Part shown: piece by piece, positions 21,477-61,354 of the stretch
Layout of the letters: every line of letters starts with the position of its first letter
How positions within the stretch are numbered: position 1 is the first letter of the stretch
The notes under the pieces: generated by a model
What the model was told of the DNA's origin: nothing
Database searches by the model: none
What the model saw: the letters and a program-made list of their open reading frames with translations, nothing else
Position numbers and translations under genes: made by a program
DNA from: Oscillospiraceae bacterium
GTDB taxonomy: Bacteria > Bacillota > Clostridia > Oscillospirales > Acutalibacteraceae
DNA length: 64,000 nt
Direction of reading: 5' to 3'
NCBI GenBank assembly: GCA_015066365.1
Contig: SVON01000003.1
Coordinates: 61,416-125,415 of the forward strand

Positions 21477-23396
21477 ATGCAGAACTATACACGCAATCTG
21501 CTGGCCTTGTTGTGTGCGGTAGCGATGCTTTTCTCTCTGGTTTCCTGCGGCACGCAGGCTCAGGGTGAGGAGGGCGAAGCCCCCAACAAGGTGGAGGCTA
21601 ACAGCGTGGCGAAGATCTTGGAGCGGGACGGCTATCTGGAGGGGATCTGGTGGCCTTGGTTTACCCACGACGATCTGGGCCATGGTCTGACCGCCAACGA
21701 GACTATGGTAAAGTATGTGAGCAACGCTTGGTCTACGGTGGGCGTGGACAAGTATAGCGATAAATATCTGCTGGAGCAGATCTATAACCTGAAGGCTTTG
21801 GGCTTTAACATTATGGGTTATGAAGGCTCGATCTACGCAGAGGGCGTCATTTTTGACGAAGCCGGCGATGTGCTGGGCATTAAGGAGGATTACCTCCAGA
21901 ATGTCCGCCGTCTGCTGAACGTCTGCCGTCAGGCCGAGATGCCGGTGCTGTGGACGGTGTGCTGTCACTCCACCTCGGCGGTTTCCTATTACAATCTGGA
22001 GGTTTGGTACCGGATGACCCAGATGTATGCGGTCAAGGAGGTAGCCGACCACTATGTTGAGCGATTTGTCAAACCGTTGTGCGCGGTGCTGGCAGAATAT
22101 CCGGACGTGGTGGTGATGTGTGCCACCACCTCTGAGGTAGAGAACGAGATGAACGACCCCGATATGGGCAACTTCACCGAGCATCGGGAAACCTATGGCG
22201 TCACCAAAGAGTCGATGCTATATTTTGTCAACGCGGTGGCGGATACCCTGGCGGCAGAGCTGCCGAACGTGGATCGCACCCTCTGCGGTAGCACCGACAA
22301 TATGACCATGTACTCCGAGACCAACCTGACCTTTATCGGTCACCAAGAGTATAATGCCAACGCTTCTGCCGACGACATTTCTAAATTCCGTTCTCCGTTG
22401 CCGATGTTGGCCACCGAGTTCGGCTTGGGCGACGGCAAATATCCCACCGAGGACGAGCTGGTCGATGCCCAGCTTACCTTCCGGAATAATTTCAAGAGCA
22501 AGGGCTGGAGCGGATGGTTTATGTGGTGCTGGTCCAATCAGTCCGGCGGTAGTTCTTATGACCTGATTGCCAAAAACGGTGGGATTACCGATTTCCGCAA
22601 GGTGGCCTATGAGATCCACGATTATATTGAGGAATACCGGGCGGAGTATCGGGGCGAGACCCTTTCGGTCAACACCCCCACTATGTTCTTTCACTCCGGC
22701 GACGGCCTGGTAGAGTGGATAAAGCCTACCCAGTCTCACACCTATAAGCTGGAGCGATCGCTGAACGGCGGCGCTTGGACCACCATCGCCACCACCGGCG
22801 CTACGGTGGATTCTGTGGGCCGTAAATACACCTATCAGGACACCACCCTGCCCACCAACGGCAAGGTGCAGTACCGGGTGATTGTTACCTCCGGCGGCAA
22901 GACCGTCACCTCCCTCTCCAACGTGGTGGACGTTCTGCCTCCTGCCCAGAACCTGGCGCAGAATGGCGGCTTTGAGGATGGACTGACCGGCTGGACCAAG
23001 TTTGGTAGTGACGGCACCTACCGGGCTACCAACGCCACCGCCCACACCGGCTCTTACAGTTTGGAGCTGGATTATGGCAGCGGCGAGTGGCAGGGGATGT
23101 ATCAGCCCGCCCTTCAGGTGAAGCCGAACACCAACTACACCCTGACGTATTACTACAAACACGCCGGCGACGATACCGCCAACAACTGCTATTGCTTTGT
23201 ACGCGGCGGGGATGGCACCATTAATGCGGCGGAGATCGTTGGCCAGGCCTATATGAACGGCGGCAACACCACCGAATGGAAGAAGGAGACCATTTCCTTC
23301 CGCACCGGTGACAGCGATAAGCTGTGCATCGACTTCCGTGTGGTAGCCGGCACGCACACCTATATCGACGACGTTATGTTGGTCGAATTGCTGTAA
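21477..23396 (+). CDS. secreted lipoprotein glycoside hydrolase, clan GH-A-like (beta/alpha)8 (GH5-like, family unresolved), plus Fn3/Ig-like and C-terminal CBM4/9-like domains
   Basis: Lipobox LVSCG. IYNLKALGFNIMGYEGS, VENEMND (candidate acid/base) and LATEFGLGDG (candidate nucleophile). C-terminus NGGFEDGLTGW...KPNTNYTLTYYYK. Paralogs at 47129 and 55013. Confidence 0.7.
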   Translation: MQNYTRNLLALLCAVAMLFSLVSCGTQAQGEEGEAPNKVEANSVAKILERDGYLEGIWWPWFTHDDLGHGLTANETMVKYVSNAWSTVGVDKYSDKYLLEQIYNLKALGFNIMGYEGSIYAEGVIFDEAGDVLGIKEDYLQNVRRLLNVCRQAEMPVLWTVCCHSTSAVSYYNLEVWYRMTQMYAVKEVADHYVERFVKPLCAVLAEYPDVVVMCATTSEVENEMNDPDMGNFTEHRETYGVTKESMLYFVNAVADTLAAELPNVDRTLCGSTDNMTMYSETNLTFIGHQEYNANASADDISKFRSPLPMLATEFGLGDGKYPTEDELVDAQLTFRNNFKSKGWSGWFMWCWSNQSGGSSYDLIAKNGGITDFRKVAYEIHDYIEEYRAEYRGETLSVNTPTMFFHSGDGLVEWIKPTQSHTYKLERSLNGGAWTTIATTGATVDSVGRKYTYQDTTLPTNGKVQYRVIVTSGGKTVTSLSNVVDVLPPAQNLAQNGGFEDGLTGWTKFGSDGTYRATNATAHTGSYSLELDYGSGEWQGMYQPALQVKPNTNYTLTYYYKHAGDDTANNCYCFVRGGDGTINAAEIVGQAYMNGGNTTEWKKETISFRTGDSDKLCIDFRVVAGTHTYIDDVMLVELL

Positions 23397-46952: not shown

Positions 46953-47128
46953 ATCAGTGTGTTGTATTATGGGTTGATAGTATACCCTTATTATCTGTGT
47001 TGTCAAATCACAATACAACAGATACCGAGTGTTCGCTGCGGAAAAGGGCGGATAATTCCCATAAGCAAGCGGACGGCACCGGGTGTGACCGCCGCAAAAA
47101 ATATTTTTTGAGAGGAAGCGTGAAACAC

Positions 47129-48736
47129 ATGCGTAGAATCGCGAAAAAGACCCTGTTGCCCTTGCTGTGTGTGGTGGCGCTGATGGCCTGCACCTTTGGT
47201 GCGCTCTCCATCTCCGGCGCTACTCCTAGTGTGGAAAAAAGCGAGGCAATCCTGTCGAAATACGACGTCGACTCCTGGAACGGTACCATCCAGACCGGTA
47301 AGGCCGGCGACGGCATCGTCACCGCCTGGGATATTCTGAAGGTGGATGGCTATATCGAGGGTGTCTGGATCCCCTGGTTGACCCACTCTTGGTTGGGTTC
47401 CAGTTTGGCCCCCAACGACCTGGAGGCTTACGATAGTTATCTGGGTGACGATGGCTCTACCAAGGATTATTGGCAGAATATGAGCCAGACTGGTATTGAT
47501 CAGTATGACAACACCCAGTTGGAGATGGAGATCTTCAACCTGAAGGCTCTGGGCTTTAATGTGATGGCCTATGCGGGCTCCCCCTGGGGCGAGGGCCGTA
47601 TCAACGATACGAACACCTGGGAGTGCACCGGTGTTAAGCCGGAGTACCTGACCAATATGCGCCGTCTGTTGGATATTTGCCGCAAGGTGAATATGCCCGT
47701 TTGCTGGTACCTCCACTTCCACTCTTCCGCCGTGCCCGGCTACGCTAATTTGGATATGTGGTATAAGATCGCTCAGGTACAGGGCAATAAGGAGTACGCC
47801 GATTCCTACGCCGAGAACTTCGTTAAGCCCGTCTGCGAGGTGCTGGCTGAGTATCGCGACGTAGTCGTGATGTGCGGCATCGCTGACGAGACCTTTAACG
47901 AGATCAACGACTCCGATTTGGGCGATAAGTTCGAAGCGGGCCGTGACCAGTACGGCGTCACCGAAGAGGACTCTATGTATTTCCATGCCCAGATCGGCAA
48001 GATGGTCAAGCAGGTGATGCCGGATATGCCCACCACCTGTGCCGACAACGCCGACCAGTACGCTATGTACGGCGACGCCATCCTGGATATGCCCGGCCGT
48101 AACCAGTATTCCGACAGCGCCAACGCCTCCACTGATGTGACCAGCGCCTGGGCTACCGGTCCTCTGATGGCGGGTGAGTACGGTATGAGCGGCTCCTCCG
48201 GTGAGTACACCGAGGAAAACTGGTCCTCCACCATGATCGCCAAGCGCGAGGATTATCTGGACGCCGGCTACAGCGGCTTCTTCCAGTGGGCCTATGAGCC
48301 GGTCTTTAAGACCGCCGGCGCCGCCGCCCCCAACGGCAACCAGATGATCTATCAGGGCGGCACCACCCCCTACGACCTGCGTCTGGGCTGCTACAAGGCC
48401 TATTACTGGGCGATGGAACAGCAGGGCAAATCTGCCGATGCTCCCTCCGCTATGTACTATTGCGGCAAGACCATCTCTCTGACCAGCGGCGGCAGCTATG
48501 CCGGCAACGGTAAGGTTTACTACATCCGTCCCGAGAACGACGCCACCGTTACGGTGCAGCGTTCCACCGATGGCGGTGCCACCTGGACCACCATCAGTGG
48601 TACCACCACCTATGACACCAACGCAGACAACCGCCGCGCTTGCCTGACCGACCCCAACCCCGTGACCAGCGGCACCGTGCAGTACCGCGTCACTGCCAAC
48701 GGCTATACGTCCTACACCAACGTGTGGGCCTACTAA
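47129..48736 (+). CDS. secreted clan GH-A-like glycoside hydrolase paralog plus Fn3/Ig-like domain (no terminal CBM)
   Basis: Signal peptide (possible lipobox LMAC). IFNLKALGFNVMAYAGS, ETFNEIND and MAGEYGMSG align with the cassette 1 and 3 enzymes. Confidence 0.7.
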   Translation: MRRIAKKTLLPLLCVVALMACTFGALSISGATPSVEKSEAILSKYDVDSWNGTIQTGKAGDGIVTAWDILKVDGYIEGVWIPWLTHSWLGSSLAPNDLEAYDSYLGDDGSTKDYWQNMSQTGIDQYDNTQLEMEIFNLKALGFNVMAYAGSPWGEGRINDTNTWECTGVKPEYLTNMRRLLDICRKVNMPVCWYLHFHSSAVPGYANLDMWYKIAQVQGNKEYADSYAENFVKPVCEVLAEYRDVVVMCGIADETFNEINDSDLGDKFEAGRDQYGVTEEDSMYFHAQIGKMVKQVMPDMPTTCADNADQYAMYGDAILDMPGRNQYSDSANASTDVTSAWATGPLMAGEYGMSGSSGEYTEENWSSTMIAKREDYLDAGYSGFFQWAYEPVFKTAGAAAPNGNQMIYQGGTTPYDLRLGCYKAYYWAMEQQGKSADAPSAMYYCGKTISLTSGGSYAGNGKVYYIRPENDATVTVQRSTDGGATWTTISGTTTYDTNADNRRACLTDPNPVTSGTVQYRVTANGYTSYTNVWAY

Positions 48737-48756: not shown

Positions 48757-51003
48757 ATGAAACATTTTAGAAAAGTTAGCGCAGTCCTCCTGGCTGTGGT
48801 GATGCTGGCGGTTATGTTACCTTCCTTCATCAGCATAGATGCCCCCGTTGAGGCCGCCGAGGTCGGCGTGGTTGAAAACGGCAATTTCAGTAGCTACGAG
48901 TCCTATACCGGCAGCAGCGGCCAGACTGCCTGGAAGGCCACCGGTTGGGACGTGCGTGACTGGGGTGTTACTATGGGTGCCTCCGGTCAGAGCGGCAAGG
49001 GCGTCCAGCTGTCTAAGGATCCCTCCCACGCCGGAGCTACCTCTCTGACCCAGGTGGTGCCTGTCAACACCAACGCCACCTACACCTTCTCCTTTTACGC
49101 TAAGGCTCCCAAGACCGACTGCGACTACGTGGCGTGCTTCACCTACTCTCTGGATTTGGGCACTACTTCCGGTGACTGCAACACCTCTTTGGTGAGTCAG
49201 GCTACCATCAACCCCGGTAGCACCAGCTGGAAGAAGTTTACCTATACCGTGAACACCGGCTCCAACAAGTATCTGAAGATTCGTTTCATCAGTACCGGTG
49301 TCGGTTCCGGTGACTCCTATCTGGATACCGTGGCCCTGACCGTGGTCAATGCCGGCGACACCGGCACCCACGCCAAGCCCACCCTGAAGAGCTTCACCAC
49401 CGAGAAGAACCGCCCCAATTCCGACAGCAACAATGTGATTAAGCAGCCCGGCTTTGAGGCCACCACCAGTGCTCAGTGGAACACCTCTGCTTTCCTGACC
49501 AACGGTGTGTCCCACGTCACCGGCGATGCCGCCGGCGCTCACTCCGGTAGTGGCTATCTGAAGTATTATCGCGGCAGCGTGGCTCCCGGCACCTGGTCTC
49601 AGTTCAGCGTGGATCTGCCCTCTGCCGGTGAGTACGTCTTCTCCGCCTGGGTGCGTACCCCTGGGCTGTCCGCCAATAACAAGGGTGTGGCCAGCATCGG
49701 TATTATGGACGAGGACACCAATAAGTTCCTGACCTATGATGACGGTTACTACGGTCACTATTCCACCCCCGAGATCCAGATCCGTTCCACCGCCACCGAT
49801 AACGACTGGCACCTGCGTGCCGTCACCTTCTACGTGGGCGGCGCTTCCACCATTCGGATCGCTATGTACGGTCTGTCCTCCGAGATGTACGTGGACGATA
49901 TCTCCATCCACCTGTTGACCAATGGTGTGACCTATTCCGGCAACCAGAAGGGCACCCTGTCTGCCAGCACCTCTGTCAGCAATAAGTATTGCGAGGCCGA
50001 GGATAGCCTGATCCCCGACAGCGCCTTTAACGGCGATGCATCTAAGACGTTCTGGAGCCAGTCCTCCGGTTGGAACAACGGTATGCTGGAGTTTGCCAAG
50101 GATGCTACTGCTACTACCCGTGGCACCACGCTGCACTACAAGGGCACCAACACCGGCTCTAAAAAGCTGTACAACTACATCAAGTTTGTCTATGTGGAGC
50201 CCAACACCAGCTACACCGTATCCTTCGACTATCGTGTGGCTACCGCCGGCAACCAGCTGATGTTCATTGATAACAACATCGAGAATCCCCAGATTTTCCA
50301 CACCGCCTCTTTGGGCTCTGCCAGCAACAGCTGGAAGACCTATGCCTTCACCTTCAGCTCCGGTAACTACAACCGCATCGGTATTGTGTTCCGCAACCAC
50401 GCTTCCGCCGAGTCCTACTTCGACGATTTCCGCTTCTTCAAGTATTCCGACGGTATCGCTACCGAGCCGGAAGAGGAAGTATTCCCCACCCTGAAGCACA
50501 CCGGTGGTGAGAAGTCTCGTATGGAGATGGATACCGGCAAGCTGGGTCTGGCCTTCCGCTTTAATCTGGATTGCACCGGCGTGACCCTGAATGGTCAGCA
50601 CATTGGTAACTACGCCAACGGTAAGGTGCAGGCCTTTGAGGACGGCGTGGATTATACGCTGAAAGCTGCCGGCGCCGTGATGACCAACGACGCTTCTGTG
50701 GGTAATGATAAAAATGCCTTTGTGCGCGAGAACACCAACACCGCCAAGACGGTGATCGACGTCAATGCCAAGTATCTGTTCAACGTGTATCACAAGAACT
50801 ACTATGGCATCGATCAGGATGGTATCACCTATGCGGTGCGTATCACCAACATCCCTGAGAGTCACATCTCTACGGTAATCTATGCCCGTCCTTACTATAT
50901 CTTTGATTACAACGGCCGCGATGTGATTGTGTACGGTGATATCGTCTCTGCTTGCTACGAGACCTTCCCCGACATCAACGACGGTTGGCTGGAGTGGGAT
51001 TGA
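48757..51003 (+). CDS. secreted multi-CBM protein, paralog of 23403..25997
   Basis: Same module order and the same conserved C-terminal domain (GAVMTNDASVG...YARPYYIF...VIVYGDIV). Confidence 0.7.
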   Translation: MKHFRKVSAVLLAVVMLAVMLPSFISIDAPVEAAEVGVVENGNFSSYESYTGSSGQTAWKATGWDVRDWGVTMGASGQSGKGVQLSKDPSHAGATSLTQVVPVNTNATYTFSFYAKAPKTDCDYVACFTYSLDLGTTSGDCNTSLVSQATINPGSTSWKKFTYTVNTGSNKYLKIRFISTGVGSGDSYLDTVALTVVNAGDTGTHAKPTLKSFTTEKNRPNSDSNNVIKQPGFEATTSAQWNTSAFLTNGVSHVTGDAAGAHSGSGYLKYYRGSVAPGTWSQFSVDLPSAGEYVFSAWVRTPGLSANNKGVASIGIMDEDTNKFLTYDDGYYGHYSTPEIQIRSTATDNDWHLRAVTFYVGGASTIRIAMYGLSSEMYVDDISIHLLTNGVTYSGNQKGTLSASTSVSNKYCEAEDSLIPDSAFNGDASKTFWSQSSGWNNGMLEFAKDATATTRGTTLHYKGTNTGSKKLYNYIKFVYVEPNTSYTVSFDYRVATAGNQLMFIDNNIENPQIFHTASLGSASNSWKTYAFTFSSGNYNRIGIVFRNHASAESYFDDFRFFKYSDGIATEPEEEVFPTLKHTGGEKSRMEMDTGKLGLAFRFNLDCTGVTLNGQHIGNYANGKVQAFEDGVDYTLKAAGAVMTNDASVGNDKNAFVRENTNTAKTVIDVNAKYLFNVYHKNYYGIDQDGITYAVRITNIPESHISTVIYARPYYIFDYNGRDVIVYGDIVSACYETFPDINDGWLEWD

Positions 51004-51041: not shown

Positions 51042-51076
51042 AAAATCCCGGTCACGGTTCCCGTGACCGGGATTTT
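51042..51076 (+). terminator. rho-independent terminator
   Basis: aaaatcccggtcacgg / ccgtgaccgggatttt. Confidence 0.85.
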
Positions 51077-51141: not shown

Positions 51142-51927
51142 ATGGAAGCTTTTAATCATTGGTTGAATCAAATACAGCATAACGGCCAGGGTGTTGAACT
51201 GTACAATCTGGTGGGCACCCTTTGTTTTGTCGTGCTGGTTATTAGCGGTATTTGGTATGTTTGGCGGCAAAAACTGAGTTTTTTTAAGGCGATGCCCATT
51301 GTGGTGATGGCCTGTGTGTTTTTGATTTACGCTCAGCATCTGATGACCTGGTATCGCCGAGATTTTGCGCTGGAGAGTTACATGGGCACCGCTAACGTTG
51401 GCTATGCTTTTACGCTGTTGCCGCTGTTTTGTTGGCTGTGTGCAAAGGCCTTTTCCGTTTCCACCGCTACGGTGGGGGAACTGGTGGCGGTCACCACCCT
51501 CTCTTGGCACGTAATCGGCCGCTCCGGTTGCACCTTTTCCGGTTGTTGCCGTGGTGTTGACTGCCCGTGGGGCGTCTATTCCGTCTATGCCGGCGGAAAC
51601 ACGTTTCCGGTCTGCTGGCTGGAGAGTTTGATCGCTCTGGGCGTATTGGTGTTTCTGCTGGTGCGTCTGTTCCGCCGGGAGCGCGGTGTGCCGGATGATG
51701 GGCGCGCCTTACCGTACGCTCTGCTGCTGTACGGTAGTGGCCGCTTTTTCTCCGAGTTTTTGCGGCACCACCCTCAGGAGGATATCCTCTTTGGCTTTTT
51801 GCCGGAGTTCTCGGTTCACGCCCTGCTGATGGCGATGGTGGGCGGTATTCTGCTGTACAGCGTTATACGGGGACACCGGCCTGCTGTTTCGTCTGCAACG
51901 GCGGATACGGCGGTTTCACAAGAATAA
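51142..51927 (+). CDS. Lgt (prolipoprotein diacylglyceryl transferase) family membrane protein, Cys-rich variant motif
   Basis: Aligns by eye to the C-terminal two thirds of Lgt. GRSGCTFSGCCRG corresponds to the GR.GNF.N.E..G signature, FPVCWLESL to P.QLYE, and YGSGRFFSEFLR to YG.FRF..EF.R. Confidence 0.6.
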   Translation: MEAFNHWLNQIQHNGQGVELYNLVGTLCFVVLVISGIWYVWRQKLSFFKAMPIVVMACVFLIYAQHLMTWYRRDFALESYMGTANVGYAFTLLPLFCWLCAKAFSVSTATVGELVAVTTLSWHVIGRSGCTFSGCCRGVDCPWGVYSVYAGGNTFPVCWLESLIALGVLVFLLVRLFRRERGVPDDGRALPYALLLYGSGRFFSEFLRHHPQEDILFGFLPEFSVHALLMAMVGGILLYSVIRGHRPAVSSATADTAVSQE

Positions 51928-51988
51928 GTTTACAAAAATGTGGGTCTGGGTCTGTTTGGCTCCGCCCCCATGAAACGAGGTTTCATAA

Positions 51989-52843
51989 ATGGAACAATTC
52001 AACAACTGGCTTAATGAAATTCAGCACAATGGAAGAGGCATCGAGCTGTACAATCTGACCGGTACCGTCTGTATAGCGCTGTTGGCGGTTTCGATACTGC
52101 TATACGTTTGGCGGCAGAGGCTGAATCCGTTTAAGGCGATTCCCATCGGGATAATCGTGTACTATTTTCTCGGCTATGCCCAGCATATCATGACCTGGTA
52201 CCGACGCGATTTTGCGTTCGGCGAGGGGTATTATGGCACCGCCAACATCGGGTATGCGTTCGTCCTGCTGCCGCTTCTCTGCTGGCTGTGCGACGTCACC
52301 TTTAACCTGCCCAAGCACACCTCCGGCGAGCTGGCGGCGATCACCACGCTGGGATGGCACTTTGTGGGTCGCTCCGGCTGCACCTTTACCGGCTGTTGCC
52401 ACGGCATTCCCAGCAGTTGGGGTATCTACACCCACAAAATTGACAGCCTTGCCTTCCCGGTCTGTTGGCTGGAGAGCCTGCTTACTCTGGGCATCCTGAT
52501 CTTCCTGCTGGTGCGGCTGTTCCGCCGTGGTCTTATGCCGGAAGGGAAACAGAGCCGCTTCCGTCTGGTGAACTGGTATTACCGCAAGCGCCGTATGCTG
52601 GATAACGGTCGGGCGCTTCCCTATATGTTGCTGTTTTACGGCACCGGCCGTTTCTTCACCGAGTTTTTGCGGTACCACCCCGAGGACGATATCCTCTTCG
52701 GTTTCCTGCCGGAGTTCTCCATTCACGCCCTGCTGATGGCAGTGGTGGGCGGTTATCTTTTGTACCGCCTGATTAAAAAAGAGAAGGCTGCGGCTGTACC
52801 GGAAGAGGAAGCGCTTCCTACCCTCAAGGGTCAGCGGCACTAA
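51989..52843 (+). CDS. second Lgt-family membrane protein (tandem paralog)
   Basis: MEQFNNWLNEIQHNG..., GRSGCTFTGCCHG, FPVCWLESL and YGTGRFFTEFLR. Colinear with the upstream gene. Confidence 0.6.
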   Translation: MEQFNNWLNEIQHNGRGIELYNLTGTVCIALLAVSILLYVWRQRLNPFKAIPIGIIVYYFLGYAQHIMTWYRRDFAFGEGYYGTANIGYAFVLLPLLCWLCDVTFNLPKHTSGELAAITTLGWHFVGRSGCTFTGCCHGIPSSWGIYTHKIDSLAFPVCWLESLLTLGILIFLLVRLFRRGLMPEGKQSRFRLVNWYYRKRRMLDNGRALPYMLLFYGTGRFFTEFLRYHPEDDILFGFLPEFSIHALLMAVVGGYLLYRLIKKEKAAAVPEEEALPTLKGQRH

Positions 52844-52857
52844 TCGATAACACAAGC

Positions 52858-52890
52858 AAAAGGCTGTGGCGGTTGCCACAGCCTTTTTTT
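52858..52890 (+). terminator. rho-independent terminator
   Basis: aaaggctgtggc / gccacagccttt stem plus a T-run. Confidence 0.85.
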
Positions 52891-53333: not shown

Positions 53334-54896
53334 ATGAAAACAGCAAAGTTCAGCCGTATTCTCAGCCTGTTGGCTCTGGTGCTGGTTGCCACGATGCTGC
53401 TGACCCTGGTCAGCTGTGGCAGCACCACCCCGGTTGGGGATATCCCCGCTGCAGAAGAGGACGTTTCTAGCGATCCCTCTGACGGCAATGGCGACGTTGC
53501 GGATCCCTCTGTGACCGATCCCAGCGACACCGACCCCACTTCTTCTGACCCTACTGCCAGTGACCCCACTAGCAGCACTCCCACCAGCAGTGGCACCGGT
53601 GGTATTCCGATCATCACCAAGCCCAACCCCAGCGGCAGTGGCACCACCCAGACCACCACTTCTCTGACCAACCCCACGGTGGATCCTGGCAAGGATGTTC
53701 TGAAGGCTGTTCCGAAGGAGCTGAAGGGCACCAGCATCAAGATGCTGATCTGGTGGACCGCCGGTAAGGACGATAAGGCCGAGGCCGCTAAATTCGAGAA
53801 GGCCACCGGCATCAAGGTTTCTTATGAAACCGCCGCTCTGACCAAGTATCAGACCAACCTGTCCGCTAAGGTTATGGCTAAGAACGCTCCCGCTCTGGCC
53901 GCCATCATCAACGAGTGGTATCCCCAGCCCATCACCCGTGGTCTGATGCAGCCCCTGACCAACGTAAAGGGTTGGAACTACAAGGATAGCAAGCTGTACT
54001 CTCTGTCTCTGATGGATCAGTTCGGCTACAAGGGCAAGCACTACGGCGTGGCTCTGAAGGGCTCCAACATGACCACCTTCGAGGTGATGTTCTTCAACAA
54101 GAACATCCTGAAGAAGCAGGGCGTCAAGCAGGATCCCTATCAGCTGTGGAAAGCCGGTAAGTGGAACTGGGATACTTGCTTGGATATCGCCAAGAAGTGC
54201 ACCGATTCCAAGCGCAAGCTGTTTGGTATGTCCAACGTTGGTCAGTATTTCTGGATGCTGTCCGCCGGTGAGGACTTTGTTAAGTCCACCAAGGCCGGTC
54301 TGAAGAACAACATCGGCTCCGCCGGCGTTCTGAACGCCTGGAACCACAACTGGAACCTGACCTACACCCACAAGGTTATCGATACCTCTTACACCGGCCA
54401 GACTCCCTTCTTCCAGGGCAAGGCCGCTATGCTGGGCGCCGGTTCCTACATGATGCAGGCCGATGCCAGCCACTCCAACTACGTTCCTCAGAACATGAAG
54501 GACGAGTGGGGTGTCGTTCCCTTCCCGTCTCCCAAGGGCAAGTCTGTTGCCGCTTGCGAGGGTACCGTTTGGGGCTTCCCCACCAGCGTCTCCGGCAACA
54601 AGCTGCAGGCCGCTGCCTGGTACCTGCGTTACTTCCTGGATGACTACAACTATTCCGCCCGTGACTTCTATCCCAAGTCTGAGTGCTGGGAGGTCATGAA
54701 GTGGATGTGGGATCAGACCATCCAGTCCTACAACTCCGTCGGTGTTCTGACCTACGGCGGTGAGTACAACGCTTACTCCATCCAGTATTCTCTGGTTGAC
54801 GAGGCTGACACCACCGGTAAGCTGAAGGCTAACCTGGAGTCCTGGATCGGCGTTCTGGATGCCAACATCAAGAAGATCGAGAACGAGTTGGCTTGA
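53334..54896 (+). CDS. extracellular solute-binding lipoprotein (carbohydrate ABC, family 1) with Ser/Thr/Pro/Asp-rich tether
   Basis: Lipobox LVSCG, linker DPSDTDPTSSDPTASDPTSSTPTSS, then an SBP-like body (IKMLIWW.., KAAMLGAGSYM). RBS TAGGAGG. Confidence 0.8.
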   Translation: MKTAKFSRILSLLALVLVATMLLTLVSCGSTTPVGDIPAAEEDVSSDPSDGNGDVADPSVTDPSDTDPTSSDPTASDPTSSTPTSSGTGGIPIITKPNPSGSGTTQTTTSLTNPTVDPGKDVLKAVPKELKGTSIKMLIWWTAGKDDKAEAAKFEKATGIKVSYETAALTKYQTNLSAKVMAKNAPALAAIINEWYPQPITRGLMQPLTNVKGWNYKDSKLYSLSLMDQFGYKGKHYGVALKGSNMTTFEVMFFNKNILKKQGVKQDPYQLWKAGKWNWDTCLDIAKKCTDSKRKLFGMSNVGQYFWMLSAGEDFVKSTKAGLKNNIGSAGVLNAWNHNWNLTYTHKVIDTSYTGQTPFFQGKAAMLGAGSYMMQADASHSNYVPQNMKDEWGVVPFPSPKGKSVAACEGTVWGFPTSVSGNKLQAAAWYLRYFLDDYNYSARDFYPKSECWEVMKWMWDQTIQSYNSVGVLTYGGEYNAYSIQYSLVDEADTTGKLKANLESWIGVLDANIKKIENELA

Positions 54897-55012
54897 TGAC
54901 GACGCATACGTCCGGATTTTCGGTCGTATGATGGAACAGTAATGTATTCCGGCGGGGCCCCGGTTAGCCGAGGTCCCGCTTTGGGATTTCTTGTGAAGAA
55001 AGGATGAGTGAG

Positions 55013-57058
55013 ATGAGTAGAGCCAAAACAAAGGCAATACTGCCCATTCTGTGCTCAATCGCCTTGTTGTTCTGTGCCTTTGGTGCGACCTACGCCTCCG
55101 GTAAAAACCCGGAGGAGCGCAGCACCGCCACCGGCATTGATATGATCTTGGAGCGCGACGGCTATATCGAGGGTATTTGGTACCCCTGGTTCCAGCATAC
55201 CTGGCTGGGTCACTGCTTGACCGGCAACGATATGATGGCCGATGTGCTCAACAGCGATAACCCCTTGAAGGTTGGTCTCGACCAGTATGGTGAGATCAAC
55301 ATTTATCGTGAGATCTACAACCTGAAGGCTTTGGGTTTCAACCTCCTCGGTTACGAAGGTTCTCCCTTCGGCGAGGGTGTTATTTATGATCAGAACGGCG
55401 ACGTGCTGGGCATCAAAGAAGAGTACCTGAACAATGTCCGCCGTTTCCTGGACATCTGTCGAGAGGTCGGTATGCCGGTTCTGTGGACCGTTTGCTTCCA
55501 CACCACCGCCGCCAACGATCTGTACGACGATGGTCGTCTGATTTGGGACCGTGTGTCTCAGGCTTATGCCAACCCCGAGGTGGCCGATCACTACGCCGAG
55601 CGTTTTGTGAAGCCCCTGTGTAAGGTGTTGGGCGAGTATCCCGAGACCGTTGTGATGGTCTCTGCCGGCGTTGAGCTGGAGAATGAGATCAACGATAGCG
55701 AGATCGGTAACTACTTCGATCAGCGTTACAACTACGGTGTTACCCAGGAGGCGATGCTGTACTTCATCAATGCGGTGAACTCTATGGTGAAGAAGCAGCT
55801 GCCCAACGTGGACACCACCATCGCTTCCACCTCCAAGGATATGTCCATCTACGAGGGGATCGATTTCGATTACATCGGTAAGAACCACTACACCATCAGC
55901 GCTCACGCTCCCGACATTGCCGAGATGCGTGGCACCACCCCCATGCTGGTCACCGAGTTCGGTCTGGGTGACGGCGTCGTGGTGGAGGATGAGGTTTGGA
56001 CCATTAAGCAGATTCAGTTCCGTGACAACTTTGTCAACGCCGGCTATAAGGGCTGGATGTACTGGTGCTGGTCCAACCAGGGCTACGGCGGTCCCTACGA
56101 CCTGCTGGTGGCCGGTGGTAAGTCCACCACCGAGTTCCGCGCCGGTGCTTTTACCATTAAGTACAACGCGGATTATATGAAGGCGATGCACAAGGGCGAA
56201 GAGATTGTTCTGGATGCGCCGGTCCTGTTCTGTAACAAGGGCTCCGGCACCGTGGAGTGGATCTCTTCCCGCCAGGCTACCAAGCTGTCCCTGCTCCGTT
56301 CTCTGGACGGTGGTAAGAGCTGGAAGACCCTGCTGAAGAAGGTGGATCCCACCGAGTACGAGGCAGACTTCAAGGGCACTTACGTGGACGAGGTTGTGGC
56401 CAATATGCAGCCGGATGGCACCAAGGTGATGTATAAGATGGTCGCTTATGACGACGACGGCAACGTGCGTGAGTCTGAGCCCTCCAACAACGCCACCGTG
56501 GTTGGCCCTCCCGTGAACATTCTGGCCAACTACAACTGCAGCTTCGAGGACGGCCTGGATGGCTGGCAGGAGTTTGGTACCAATGGTGAGACCGGTAACT
56601 ATACCGCCACCATCGTGGATCTTGGCAAGGACGCTCCCGACGGCAAAAAGGTTCTGGAGTTCAAGCAGAACACCGGTAAGGGCGAGTGGTCCGGTATCCA
56701 CATGGATGGTATCGACGTTAAGCCCAACACCCAGTATAAGATCATCTTGAAGTACAAGATCGCTCCCGAGGCCGAGTTTGGGTACGACGTATCCGACGAG
56801 GTCAACAAGATGTCCGGTTACTTCTTTATCCGCGGCATCGGCGCCGATGGCACCGGTACCGGTAAGGGCGACATCTACGATGAGTCTATCGCCTGTATGT
56901 ATATGCTGCGCGGTAGCAAACTGGAGTGGAAGGACGACAGCATCAGCTTTAAGACCAACGAGAGTGGCAAGCTGGGTCTGGACCTGCGTTGCGTCCACTA
57001 TCTGGGCGTCCCGGTCCACTATTACATCGACAGCATTGAGTTGTACGAAGTTCTGTAA
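55013..57058 (+). CDS. secreted clan GH-A-like glycoside hydrolase paralog plus Fn3/Ig-like and C-terminal CBM4/9-like domains
   Basis: ILERDGYIEGIWYPWF, IYNLKALGFNLLGYEGS, ELENEIND and LVTEFGLGDG. An alternative ATG at 55004 is possible. Confidence 0.7.
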   Translation: MSRAKTKAILPILCSIALLFCAFGATYASGKNPEERSTATGIDMILERDGYIEGIWYPWFQHTWLGHCLTGNDMMADVLNSDNPLKVGLDQYGEINIYREIYNLKALGFNLLGYEGSPFGEGVIYDQNGDVLGIKEEYLNNVRRFLDICREVGMPVLWTVCFHTTAANDLYDDGRLIWDRVSQAYANPEVADHYAERFVKPLCKVLGEYPETVVMVSAGVELENEINDSEIGNYFDQRYNYGVTQEAMLYFINAVNSMVKKQLPNVDTTIASTSKDMSIYEGIDFDYIGKNHYTISAHAPDIAEMRGTTPMLVTEFGLGDGVVVEDEVWTIKQIQFRDNFVNAGYKGWMYWCWSNQGYGGPYDLLVAGGKSTTEFRAGAFTIKYNADYMKAMHKGEEIVLDAPVLFCNKGSGTVEWISSRQATKLSLLRSLDGGKSWKTLLKKVDPTEYEADFKGTYVDEVVANMQPDGTKVMYKMVAYDDDGNVRESEPSNNATVVGPPVNILANYNCSFEDGLDGWQEFGTNGETGNYTATIVDLGKDAPDGKKVLEFKQNTGKGEWSGIHMDGIDVKPNTQYKIILKYKIAPEAEFGYDVSDEVNKMSGYFFIRGIGADGTGTGKGDIYDESIACMYMLRGSKLEWKDDSISFKTNESGKLGLDLRCVHYLGVPVHYYIDSIELYEVL

Positions 57059-57073: not shown

Positions 57074-60000
57074 ATGTTGAATATGAAAAAAGCATTGGCT
57101 CTCCTGGCCTCCTTGCTGCTGTTGTGCAGCTTGGTTCCTGTGGGTGCTCTGTTGGCCGCCAATGCGGACGACAACAACATCGTGGTCAACGGTGATTTTG
57201 AAAACGGCAGCAACGGCTGGAATATGAGCAGCTATGCTACCATTGTGGATACTGCTCACGCCGGCAACGGCGCTCTGAAGCTGGAGAATCCCTCCGCTTG
57301 GGGCGAGGCCGCCACTCAGATTGTGAACGTTGATTCCAACACTGAGTACACCGTGATCTGGTATTCCAAACGCGTGTCCGGCACCGGCGCTTTCGATCTG
57401 TTCATTATGAACAACAACGGCTACGCCAATCTGGACCGCGAGGGTCCCAACTGGATGAACGAGACCTCCGGCAACTGGGTTAAGAATCAGTGCGTGGTGA
57501 AGACCGGCACCGCTACCCAGGTGATGCTGAAGTTCTCCTGCGAAGTGCCCAATGCCGGCGTCATCCTGGTGGATGACCTGACTATGGTCAAGAAGGGTGG
57601 CAGCACCCCCGAGCCCGATCTGCCGGGTTCTGATACGGTCCTGTCTCTGGACTTCAACGACGGTTCCGTCAACGGCTTCTCCGGTGGCGCCTCTGTCGTT
57701 GCCGACGGTCCCGACGGTAGCAACTGCCTGAAGTGGACTGCTGCCGGCAACTGGGGCTGTACCGAAAAGGCTGGCGTGATCGTTAAGCCTAACACCGATT
57801 ATACCGCTACCTTTATGGTGAAGGCCAGCGTGGCCGGCTCCATGGGTATCACCATCCAGAATGGTGACTGGGGCGCTTGGCTGAACTGCCCCGCCTTTGC
57901 GGTTACCACCGAGTGGAAGAAGGTTGTCTATACCTTTAACACCGCTACTTATCCCAACGCCAGCGGCGCCATCCTGTTCAAGTTCCAGGATGTGGGTCAG
58001 GCGATGGATCTGTACATTGACGACCTGGTTATCGTTGAGGGCACCGGCACCCCCGATGAGCCCGATAATCCCCCCGAGGTGACCGTCGCCAACGGCGATT
58101 TTGAGACTGGTGATGAGACCGGTTGGCAGATTCACCAGTCTACCGCGATTGAGGCTGGCGCTGCCCACGACGGTTCGTATGGTGCCCATCTGAAGGGCGT
58201 CGGCGGCTGGGGCGGTATGCTGAATCAGGCTATCACCGTCACTGCCGGCAGCTCCTATGAGCTGACCTTCTGGATCAAGGTGAATGCCAACGGCGTGAAT
58301 ATGCAGCTCAAGGACGGCGGCGAGACCGGTTCTAACCTGGTCGGCGACTGGTTCGACGTCAGTGGTGCCGGTGACTGGACTGAGAAGAAGTACATTGTTA
58401 CCCCCACCACCGAGGTGCTGTTCATTAACTTCTGCGGCGCCGGTAACGGCACCGCCGAGGACGCTTACGTGGATAGCTTTACCATCACCGAGCTGAAAGA
58501 GGCTTCTTTTGACGGCTATATCACCAATGGTGATTTCGAGACCGGCAAGATCGACGGCTGGGAGAACCTGTGGGGTTCCTGCAGCGTGGAGATCGTGGGT
58601 GGCCGTAACGGCGGCTCCGCTCTGAAGCTTTCCTGCAACCAGTGGCAGCTCTTCCGTCAGATCGTTGAAGTAGAGCCCAACACCGATTACGTGGTGCACG
58701 CTTACTCCAAGGATGCGGCCAATATGGCTCTGATCGCCAAGACCTGTCCTGCCGACCAGAACATACCCGGTGCCAACGTATCCTTTGCCTCCGGTTCCGG
58801 CTGGTCTAAGACCACTATGGAGTTCAACTCCGGCAATACCAACCAGATTTATCTGGCTCTGATGGGTGCCGATAATGGTGCTACCGGTATCTTTGATGAC
58901 TTTGCTATGTACAAGAAGGGTGACGAGCCCGGCGGCGACGACCCCGATCAGCCTATCGATCCTGCCTATCCCACCGAGTTGGTTAACGGCGACTTCGAGA
59001 AGGGTGAAGAGGGCTGGACCCTGGCCGCTTCCGCCAGCATTGTGAGCGACAACACCCATAAGGGTACCGGCGCTCTGAAGATCGAGAATCCCTCTTTATG
59101 GAGTGAGGCTGTTGTGCAGGCCGTGTCCGTGCAGAAGGACACCAACTACGTGATCACCTGGTACTCCAAGCGCGTGAGCGGTGCAGGCTCCTTCAACCTG
59201 ATCCTGATGAACGATGCCGACCACAACTATTCCGTGGTAAGCGGTCAGAACTGGATGAACGAGACCTCCGGCGACTGGGTGAAGAACGAGGTTATTATCA
59301 ACACCGGTTCTCAGAATGTGATCAAGTTTAAGTTCACCTCTGAGGTCAACGACGCCGGTGTCATCCTGATCGACGACGTTCAGATGATCATTGAGGGCTC
59401 TGAGCCGGTGGATCCCACCGCCAGCCTGATCAAGAACGGCTCCTTTGAGGACGGTAAGGACGATTGGTCTTGGGGCGGCGAGTCTGCCGTAGCCGACGAT
59501 CCTTACGAGGGTTCTCACTCTGCGAAGTTGGTCAACAACTCTGCTTGGGGTGTAGGTATCGAGCAGGTCGTTAAGGTGGAGAAGAACACCGACTACGTGC
59601 TGCGTTTCTACACCAAGCGTGTCACCGGCGCTGGTGTCTGGGTTCTGTCTCTGATGGACAACGACACCGTCAACGTGACCAACGTCAACATCGAGGCTAC
59701 CTCCGGTCAAAAGTGGTTTAGCCACACCACCACCAACAAGTGGGAGGAGCACATCATCGAGTTCAACTCCGGTGAGGTGACCAAGGTTCTGGTGAAATTC
59801 GGCCCCGAGGCCGACAATGCCGGTTCCTTCCTGGTGGACTATATCGGTATGTGGACCAAGGGCAACGAGCCCTCTCCCGACAACCCCGATAACCCCGACA
59901 ATCCTGTGGTGCCTCCCAAGGCCCAGATGTTTATGACCTCGTTCGGCGTGTTGAACAACCGTCCCATCAGCAACGAGGACAACCTGCTGACCAACGCCAG

Positions 60001-61354
60001 CTTTGAGAAGTCCGGCGGTCAGTGGAAAGAGGGCTTCACCGGCGAGACCGTCTCTGTGGTGAAGGATTCTACCACTCTGTTTGGCAGCAAGAGCCTGTAC
60101 TTCAATACCGCCGGTATCAAAGAGGAGACCAAGATGATCTTCTGGCTCGACCTGGCTCCTGAGACCGACTATGTATTCTCCACCTGGCTGAAGGGTGCCT
60201 TCCTGGCCGACGATAACAGCGGTCTGGCCACCATCGGTATCGTGGATGAAAACGGTCGTTTCCTAGCCCAGTACGTTGAGAGCGACATCAAGCGCTTCCT
60301 CAATGGTAAGCGTCAGATCGTCCCCACCGCCTGGGATAACGAGTGGCACATTCGCGGTATTGAGTTCAACACCGGCGAGTGCACTAAGGTGGGTATCGCT
60401 TTGGCCGGTACCAACTCTCAGATGTGGATCGACGATATGGCTCTGTTTGAGGTCGGCCAGGGCAAGAAGTATATGTCTGCCAATGCGGCCGGTAACGTCT
60501 CTCTGAGCTACGATATCGACTCCAACGCCATCGCCTGTAAGGATAAGGACAGCCTGATTCCCGATCCTACCTTTAGCAAGGGTACCAACGATTTCTGGAA
60601 ATCCAGCTATGGTTGGAAGAATGGCTTCCTGAGCGTTGTCGGCAACAAGTACGAGTACGGCAAGTCTCTGAAGTACACCTACTCCAAGGATACGGCGCCT
60701 CTGTCGGTCATCAAGACCATTGAGGTTGAGCCCAACACCGATTACACCTTTGTTGTGGATCTGAAGATTCTGGAGGATGGTTGGGGCAAGCTGATGCTGT
60801 GCGACGGTAAGAAGCGTGAGCCCGTCTCCTTCCTGGAGGTCAGCTTCGACTCTTACGATTACGACCCCGAGGCCAGCTACTATGGTTGGTATACCACCGT
60901 CTGCAAGTTCAATACCGACGTATACGACAAGATCTCTCTGGTCATCCTCAACGATGGTGGTCAGGCGTTGTTGGATAATATGCGTCTGTTCAAGAGCGAG
61001 AAGGGCATCAAGAACACCGATGCGTTTACGCCTCCTCCCGAGGAGCCTACGCCCGATGTTCCGCCCTCTGACAACAACTGGTGGACCGACTATCCTGTGA
61101 TCGATGATCCCGTGATCGATGATCCCGTGATCGACGATCCCCTGCAGGGTGGTACCGACGATCCCTACGTGGAGGATGAGCCCATCGAGGCGCCCAGCAA
61201 GCCCATCAAGCTGGTTCCCACCGTGGCCAAGACGGACAACAGTGCTTGGCTGTGGGTCGGCATTGGCGGCGGCATCCTGCTGTTGGCCGGTGCCAGCGCG
61301 TTCCTGTTCTTCTTCCTGAAGAAGAAAAAGAGCACTCCTCCTGCTGCGGAATAA
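57074..61354 (+). CDS. 1426-aa cell-surface multi-CBM array protein with a C-terminal TM anchor
   Basis: Signal peptide. At least eight NG(D/S)FE..(G)W...PNT(D/E)Y modules. PVIDD repeated three times. Terminal hydrophobic segment plus KKKKS tail, with no LPXTG motif. Confidence 0.75.
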   Translation: MLNMKKALALLASLLLLCSLVPVGALLAANADDNNIVVNGDFENGSNGWNMSSYATIVDTAHAGNGALKLENPSAWGEAATQIVNVDSNTEYTVIWYSKRVSGTGAFDLFIMNNNGYANLDREGPNWMNETSGNWVKNQCVVKTGTATQVMLKFSCEVPNAGVILVDDLTMVKKGGSTPEPDLPGSDTVLSLDFNDGSVNGFSGGASVVADGPDGSNCLKWTAAGNWGCTEKAGVIVKPNTDYTATFMVKASVAGSMGITIQNGDWGAWLNCPAFAVTTEWKKVVYTFNTATYPNASGAILFKFQDVGQAMDLYIDDLVIVEGTGTPDEPDNPPEVTVANGDFETGDETGWQIHQSTAIEAGAAHDGSYGAHLKGVGGWGGMLNQAITVTAGSSYELTFWIKVNANGVNMQLKDGGETGSNLVGDWFDVSGAGDWTEKKYIVTPTTEVLFINFCGAGNGTAEDAYVDSFTITELKEASFDGYITNGDFETGKIDGWENLWGSCSVEIVGGRNGGSALKLSCNQWQLFRQIVEVEPNTDYVVHAYSKDAANMALIAKTCPADQNIPGANVSFASGSGWSKTTMEFNSGNTNQIYLALMGADNGATGIFDDFAMYKKGDEPGGDDPDQPIDPAYPTELVNGDFEKGEEGWTLAASASIVSDNTHKGTGALKIENPSLWSEAVVQAVSVQKDTNYVITWYSKRVSGAGSFNLILMNDADHNYSVVSGQNWMNETSGDWVKNEVIINTGSQNVIKFKFTSEVNDAGVILIDDVQMIIEGSEPVDPTASLIKNGSFEDGKDDWSWGGESAVADDPYEGSHSAKLVNNSAWGVGIEQVVKVEKNTDYVLRFYTKRVTGAGVWVLSLMDNDTVNVTNVNIEATSGQKWFSHTTTNKWEEHIIEFNSGEVTKVLVKFGPEADNAGSFLVDYIGMWTKGNEPSPDNPDNPDNPVVPPKAQMFMTSFGVLNNRPISNEDNLLTNASFEKSGGQWKEGFTGETVSVVKDSTTLFGSKSLYFNTAGIKEETKMIFWLDLAPETDYVFSTWLKGAFLADDNSGLATIGIVDENGRFLAQYVESDIKRFLNGKRQIVPTAWDNEWHIRGIEFNTGECTKVGIALAGTNSQMWIDDMALFEVGQGKKYMSANAAGNVSLSYDIDSNAIACKDKDSLIPDPTFSKGTNDFWKSSYGWKNGFLSVVGNKYEYGKSLKYTYSKDTAPLSVIKTIEVEPNTDYTFVVDLKILEDGWGKLMLCDGKKREPVSFLEVSFDSYDYDPEASYYGWYTTVCKFNTDVYDKISLVILNDGGQALLDNMRLFKSEKGIKNTDAFTPPPEEPTPDVPPSDNNWWTDYPVIDDPVIDDPVIDDPLQGGTDDPYVEDEPIEAPSKPIKLVPTVAKTDNSAWLWVGIGGGILLLAGASAFLFFFLKKKKSTPPAAE
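61094..61138 (+). repeat. in-frame 15-bp tandem repeat, 3 copies (PVIDD)
   Basis: cctgtgatcgatgat / cccgtgatcgatgat / cccgtgatcgacgat. Confidence 0.9.

Follow-up and report, generated by a model that had tools for sequence, protein, structure and literature searches.

Two adjacent genes, here called A and B, encode intact, divergent and selectively maintained members of the fold family of the prolipoprotein diacylglyceryl transferase Lgt (PF01790). They lie in the window, by which we mean the whole 64,000-nucleotide stretch of DNA that was analysed (C26:61416-125415), in a 1.6-Mb metagenome-assembled genome (MAG) labelled G000 that is 87% complete. Lipoprotein biogenesis in bacteria is regarded as beginning with a single, universal step carried out by Lgt, an enzyme that is also under study as a target for antibiotics. 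The cysteine signature found in the active-site region of both proteins is neither rare nor new; the new part is a distinct Lgt-fold clade that is bound to a gene cassette.

Gene A (51142..51927, + strand) encodes 261 residues and gene B (51989..52843, + strand) 284 residues, and the two products share 60% identity from end to end (BLASTP E 9e-122). The start of A is taken as ATG 51142, which has the Shine-Dalgarno sequence GAGGAG 7 nucleotides 5' of it and is preferred over ATG 51091 by the N-termini of the orthologues. The open reading frames and the motifs quoted in an earlier, sequence-only reading of this DNA were exact, with both genes on the + strand. The signature of A, GRSGCTFSGCCRG (51517..51555, + strand, residues 126-138), places C130, C135 and C136 at N146, E151 and L152 in the numbering of Escherichia coli Lgt, and a second motif, YGSGRFFSEFLR (51730..51765, + strand, residues 197-208), holds the equivalents of Y235, R239, E243 and R246. 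In B, the corresponding elements are GRSGCTFTGCCHG (52367..52405, + strand, residues 127-139) and YGTGRFFTEFLR (52637..52672, + strand, residues 217-228). The two proteins represent two types. B is 'B-type', with a 20-residue basic insert in the cytoplasmic loop between transmembrane helices (TM) 5 and 6 and a C-terminal tail, EE..LPTLKGQRH, and A is 'A-type', without the loop insert and without the C-terminal LPxLKGxR[KH] tail.

Membership of the Lgt family, which had been proposed from alignment by eye, is borne out by profile and by fold. Both proteins exceed the PF01790 LGT gathering score of 24.9, A with 51.3 bits (profile columns 95-238) and B with 34.9 bits (columns 55-238). An hhalign comparison of the family with seven canonical Lgts gave a probability of 96.2% (E 2e-9), pairing GRSGCTFSGCCRG with GRLGNFINGELWG, FPVCWLES with HPSQLYEL, and YGSGRFFSEFLR with YGAFRIIVEFFR. 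An AlphaFold2 model of B, made with 126 relatives as input, has a pLDDT of 95.2 and seven TM helices. In a Foldseek search with this model, E. coli Lgt (5AZB) was the only meaningful PDB match (prob 1.0, TM score 0.55 both ways, 289 columns), the next best being rhodopsins with a TM score of 0.16. The sequence of A had no match in the PDB, and the link to 5AZB is visible only by profile and fold. The N-terminal third, which had been described as unlike Lgt, is indeed so in sequence but not in fold, as the 289 matched columns of the B model attest. Like E. coli Lgt (5AZB/5AZC; PF01790, TIGR00544), the window proteins have a 7-TM fold, an active-site motif at the outer end of TM4 and the core residues. 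However, identity is only about 12%, the arm-2 and head regions are short, and the family has both a new N-terminal amphipathic helix (M.xFNxWL) and a new cytoplasmic C-tail.

A residue map onto E. coli Lgt was drawn from a MAFFT alignment, hhalign and the fold comparison. Six residues are absolutely required in the E. coli enzyme, namely Y26, H103 (or Y/W), R143, N146, G154 and R239 (PMC13251419). Kept in both A and B are Y26 (a position occupied by Y21 of B), G99, D129 (as E/D), G142, R143, G145, G154, P197, E202, Y235, R239, E243 and R246, and the kept core residues are invariant across 26 family members with identities down to 38%. Among them, the other conserved or viability residues (G99, G142, G145, Y235, R246, E243 and D129) are all present and are invariant or nearly so in the family. 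Changed in both proteins are N146, E151 and L152, each of which is Cys, and H103, where Val/Ile is found directly after an invariant Asn. The statement that the Lgt signature is replaced by a Cys-rich motif can therefore be kept for N146 and E151, to which L152 is added, but not for G142, R143, G145 and G154, which are retained. When the positive-inside rule is applied to the model, the Cys triad is placed at the extracytoplasmic end of TM4 and in the next loop, where Lgt has its active site. The same topology makes the 20-residue basic insert of B and the conserved C-terminal tail, both of them lacking from A, cytoplasmic.

The possibility that A and B are the only lgt genes of the genome, raised in the sequence-only reading, falls away with the finding of a canonical lgt on another contig (G000:C32:3042-3776; 257 bits; GRWGNFFNQEAFG, YGTGRFLIEGLR). 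An lsp is also present elsewhere in the genome. A and B are thus paralogs, extra copies rather than the lineage's own Lgt, and a canonical lgt was likewise found in 6 of 6 other checked genomes that bear the family. A fourth PF01790 match in G000 (C2:185955) was rejected as a false positive, being a multi-pass transporter-like protein. At 90% identity the close family forms 83 clusters in a set of 5.8 billion proteins. None of them is named, and the sources are gut MAGs of Acutalibacteraceae and other Clostridia. No source was found that names A and B, a literature search for such Lgt-like proteins returned nothing, and no assigned function was found for the Cys-signature extra copies. In a sample of 201 genomes from the taxonomic family, the clade occurs only in G000, with two copies, and in G194, with one distant member. 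Maximum-likelihood analysis recovers the family as monophyletic (100/100), within an N-terminally divergent clade that is split (100/94) from canonical Lgt and from the remaining types with a Cys signature. Two further short proteins, P0003 and P0008, form a group with A (98/95) that is nested inside the B-type clade, so that A is a derived duplicate which has lost the cytoplasmic insert and the tail. Both copies are under purifying selection, with dN/dS values of 0.12-0.23 (0.17-0.23 for A), dS being partly saturated.

The cysteines themselves are widespread. An exhaustive phmmer search found GC.F.GCC.G in 145 of 149 distant representatives, and C131, C136, C137 and P157 are the only strictly invariant columns across 126 diverse sequences. 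At the DNA level, the pattern GC-x3-GCC-x-G is found in 197 of the 401 Bacillota genomes that were sampled, most often as GCF(L/F)NGCC(Y/F/W)G, and the same pattern read backwards, which served as a control, matches only sporadically. About half of the sampled Bacillota genomes thus carry a Cys signature, and in the genomes that were checked its bearers are extra copies beside the canonical lgt. A and B belong to this Cys-signature Lgt subfamily, with Cys at N146, E151 and L152 and with R239, E243 and P197 kept. The sequence-only reading was not aware of a characterised member of this Cys variant, but the variant has been mentioned before. Replacement of N146 and E151 by C or C/D in distant Lgts is already in print (PMC13251419, mBio 2026), and the Lgt of Leptospira interrogans, with N146C and a nearby Cys for which a disulfide is proposed, was tested and partly complements E. 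coli lgt depletion (PMC13251419). N146C is also carried by Mycobacterium smegmatis MSMEG_5408 (cited in PMC13251419). As the signature is both common and published, it is not in itself the novelty. By the description in that paper, the window proteins resemble L. interrogans Lgt and MSMEG_5408 in having Cys at N146, a second Cys nearby, and R143 and R239 kept. The Leptospira protein, however, is its organism's own Lgt (PMC13251419), whereas the window proteins are extra copies with a Cys triad and often a fourth Cys. The Cys triad by itself is no sign of lost function.

What sets the clade apart is the company it keeps. Directly upstream of A are unk1 (46997..48736, + strand), a secreted protein with no Pfam match whose likely start is the Met of ...KHMRRIAKK, and CBM750 (48757..51003, + strand), a secreted CBM_4_9 protein that adjoins A. 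Downstream of B are an SBP_bac_8 solute-binding lipoprotein (53334..54896, + strand) with the canonical lipobox LTLVSC, which is always the next gene; unk2 (55004..57058, + strand), a GH5-like (beta/alpha)8 glycanase with a CBM4/16-like domain and invariant NE and TEFG motifs; and a giant CBM_4_9 array (57074..61354, + strand) with a TM helix and KKKK at its C-terminus and with neither LPXTG nor Cys in the tail. The two unk proteins are paralogs with common ELENE and TEFG motifs. The core order of unk1, CBM750, LGT-like gene, solute-binding lipoprotein, unk2 and giant CBM is the same in 11 of 11 external loci, and the LGT-like proteins of these syntenic loci are only 38-66% identical. There, the core cassette is preceded by two ATP-binding cassette permeases, a GH130 gene, a histidine phosphatase and sometimes a metallophosphatase. 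Genes of the cassette are also distributed together. Outside G000, the sample of 201 genomes from the taxonomic family yields a single weak match for unk2 (G170, 26% identity) and none for CBM750, and the LGT-like clade, unk2 and CBM750 are all missing from the same-genus genome.

The unk neighbours had no match in Pfam, nor in NCBIfam and PDB sequence searches, and unk2 was resolved by a fold search. Its AlphaFold2 model matches the GH5 beta-mannanases 2c0h, 4ooz and 5y6t (TMt 0.53-0.56), and its C-terminal domain matches CBM16/CBM4 (TMt 0.7-0.78). Together, a GH5 beta-mannanase-like unk2 and GH130 suggest that this is a beta-mannan-type utilisation cassette. The unk2 and CBM750 families are multi-copy in G000. 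The unk family, which also occurs in the window at 21486-23393 and has five paralogs in the genome with invariant ELENE(I)ND and TEFG motifs, looks like an unclassified glycanase family of clan GH-A.

The account that we tentatively prefer, while giving it somewhat less than an even chance, is that A and B are an active lipid transferase serving the exported proteins of the cassette. Activity as a lipid transferase is suggested by the retained arginines and core residues, by the purifying selection and by the case of Leptospira Lgt, and the strict synteny and the co-distribution argue for a role tied to what the cassette exports. For catalysis, donor, acceptor and cysteines we infer the following. 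The two phosphate-binding arginines, with the acidic and aromatic residues around them, would hold a glycerophospholipid on the outer side of the membrane, and diacylglyceryl or a related lipid moiety would be passed to the thiol of an exported cassette protein, for which the adjacent solute-binding lipoprotein is the simplest candidate. The Cys triad would probably play a structural part, as a disulfide of the kind proposed for Leptospira Lgt, or tune the head-group pocket. The clade makes a narrow test case, with one or two genes, one defined mannan-type cassette and few candidate partners. Knowing the transferred moiety and its acceptor would show whether Gram-positive gut bacteria use dedicated lipid transferases for their surface glycan-harvesting machinery, and what the cysteines do.

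Several observations count against this account. In terms of the protein, two of the six residues required in E. coli are altered (N146 to Cys and H103 to Val/Ile; Y26, R143, G154 and R239 are kept), and the TIGR00544 equivalog cutoff of 118.9 is not reached by either A (22 bits) or B (13.7 bits); nor is the NF000778 equivalog cutoff of 334, against which they score 30.5 and 23.4 bits. In terms of the locus, A and B are bracketed by terminators and show no translational coupling to any neighbour, and four more paralogous unk2/CBM loci in G000 have no LGT-like gene. In terms of the substrate, no dedicated acceptor or special substrate motif was found among the cassette proteins. The lipobox of the solute-binding lipoprotein is ordinary (LTLV[GS]C) in all orthologues and should be handled by canonical Lgt, and the other cassette proteins have ordinary signal peptides of the signal peptidase I type, in which the conserved Cys lies near the cytoplasmic end or in the middle of the helix. 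The idea of a specialised transferase for a subset of surface proteins, put forward in the sequence-only reading, thus gains plausibility from the conserved gene neighbourhood but lacks a substrate motif to go with it.

The altered essential residues and the very low equivalog scores speak for A and B being non-catalytic pseudoenzymes, which might provide a scaffold in the membrane, or bind signal peptides or lipid, while the very large cassette proteins are secreted; MSMEG_5408, with N146C and Y26H, is presumed to have low activity (PMC13251419). We consider this very improbable, however, given that the phosphate-binding arginines and at least eight other active-site residues, of the sort that pseudoenzymes usually lose, are invariant across the family and that purifying selection is strong.

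The terminators, both of them strong hairpins, bear on a different explanation. One hairpin (51042..51076, + strand), with a 16-bp stem followed by a T-run, stands after the CBM750 gene and 65 nucleotides upstream of A, and another (52858..52887, + strand), followed by TTTTTTT, stands after B. The 65 nucleotides between the first terminator and the start of A show no consensus sigma-70 promoter, and expression of A and B may come from terminator read-through from the CBM750 gene. As a unit of their own between terminators, A and B could be generic second Lgt isozymes that lipidate ordinary lipobox proteins beside the canonical enzyme, perhaps with another donor or under other conditions, and whose place in the cassette would reflect the co-transfer of a block of the genome and not a dedicated function. 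In favour of this, a crude scan found at least 64 lipobox proteins encoded in G000. Most of the core and both catalytic arginines are retained, an Lgt with N146C has partial generic activity in E. coli (PMC13251419), and Cys-signature paralogs are very common in Bacillota. If A and B were such redundant isozymes, the finding would be routine. We nevertheless hold this to be unlikely. The position in the cassette is strictly conserved even at protein identities of 38-66%, nearly all relatives lack the clade although they are rich in lipoproteins, and the divergent N-terminal half and the conserved cytoplasmic tail speak for a specialised interaction.

It is also possible that the Lgt fold has been put to other chemistry or to a non-protein acceptor, with a glycerolipid or glycerophosphate being transferred onto a glycan, glycolipid or wall polymer, or with an invariant Cys serving as a covalent nucleophile. 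Across the wider clade of 126 sequences, strict invariance is confined to the three Cys and P157, whereas R, H, K or Q may stand at the R143 position. The proposed base, H103, is missing, the genomic setting is one of carbohydrate metabolism, and one distant member adjoins a membrane protein that may be GT-C-like (by eye, from a DE motif only; no Pfam match). Such a role seems doubtful, however. The positions equivalent to R239, E243 and Y235 hardly vary and Y26 is present, as in the Lgt that lipidates proteins; the cassette has no glycolipid or teichoic-acid genes; and a structural disulfide is a simpler account of Cys at N146 (PMC13251419).

If A and B are instead a lipid transferase for the cassette's exported proteins, as we prefer, a recognition signal might be sought at either end of these proteins. 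At the N terminus, LLPxLC, which is present in 11 of 11 unk1/unk2 orthologues, was tried as a non-canonical lipobox and rejected, the Cys lying only 6-7 residues past the basic n-region and on the cytoplasmic side, remote from an active site of the Lgt type. About 20 large secreted proteins of G000 (e.g., on C15, C25 and C27, and at 57074-57160 of the window) have near-identical signal peptides of the form K/R-x-[IV]LA[IV]L..V.MLC[TSA][LV][LIV]P[LM][GS]..SAA, with MLC[TS]LLP in the giant CBM proteins. Both LLPxLC and MLC[TSA]..P are weak evidence at best, since 132 of the 196 signal peptides predicted in G000 contain a Cys, even upstream of ordinary lipoboxes. Cys is unusually frequent in the h-regions of the signal peptides of this genome. 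At the C terminus, the giant CBM protein (61230-61354 of the window) and its three orthologues (L064, L065 and L066) have a TM helix, a K/R cluster and a short acidic end. C-termini in this family read …KKKKSTPPAAE, …KRKKKGQPVAE, …KKRKKASATPEE and …RRKKEDEE, none with LPXTG or Cys. None of 30 C-terminally anchored proteins of G000 combined Gly-Cys with a TM helix and a basic C-terminal tail, and no CPBP protease was found among the Pfam-scanned cassette genes. Sorting by a C-terminal Cys tail was rejected, the giant CBM proteins and the leucine-rich repeat (LRR) proteins encoded beside distant clade members having plain TM helices and basic tails.

A bolder version of a cassette-bound role can be imagined, although we regard it as quite unlikely. 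The clade would be a substrate-dedicated second lipidation pathway of gut Clostridia, in which the cassette's large surface proteins, which capture glycans, are tethered to membrane lipid by an Lgt-fold enzyme whose active site is thiol-based and which reads a non-lipobox signal, with BspA-type LRR proteins as the targets elsewhere. Candidate signals may be membrane-embedded segments or C-terminal TM helices with basic tails. Two distant clade members (L040:7752-10377 and L062:6027-8719) overlap or abut the starts of genes for secreted BspA-type LRR_5 surface proteins, and these proteins end in a TM helix and a basic tail. This proximity also counts in favour of the account that we prefer. Upstream in L062 is a 1562-residue protein whose signal, …VTYAWFALSKSPE, resembles a SipW/TasA-type signal by eye.

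Divergent Lgt-like proteins are known from other settings. The archaeal AliA/AliB (arCOG02177/02178; PMC12462473) resemble A and B in being a paralogous pair of very divergent Lgt-like membrane proteins with two conserved arginines. AliA/AliB have been implicated in lipoprotein lipidation, and the paralogs differ in their putative catalytic residues (PMC12462473). Within Bacillota, 'type I' Cys-signature paralogs (GR.GCF.(N/G)GCCYG, about 268 residues) share GC-x3-GCC-x-G and YG/YP..RF..EFLR with the window proteins and likewise co-occur with canonical Lgt. They differ, however, in having a canonical Lgt N-terminus, in scoring 120-140 bits with PF01790, and in falling on the canonical-Lgt side of the 100/94 split. 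Type I loci are found in other Clostridia (L041:6309-7543, L042:6418-7727, L043:5709-6996, L044:5791-7059, L018:1946-3222 and L026:7316-8408). The type I paralog always adjoins a small Cys-rich membrane protein, and the two of these that were scanned match DUF4190.

There is, in addition, a third Cys-signature subtype of 230-250 residues with LK.SCFC.GCCYG. Judged by eye from their N-terminal sequences, its neighbours look like mnmG, rsmG and a noc/parB-like gene on one side and parA/parB on the other. This subtype (L059:8205-8960, L060:7710-8402 and L061:7722-8450) occupies the same housekeeping position in each of three genomes in which the window's family is present too.

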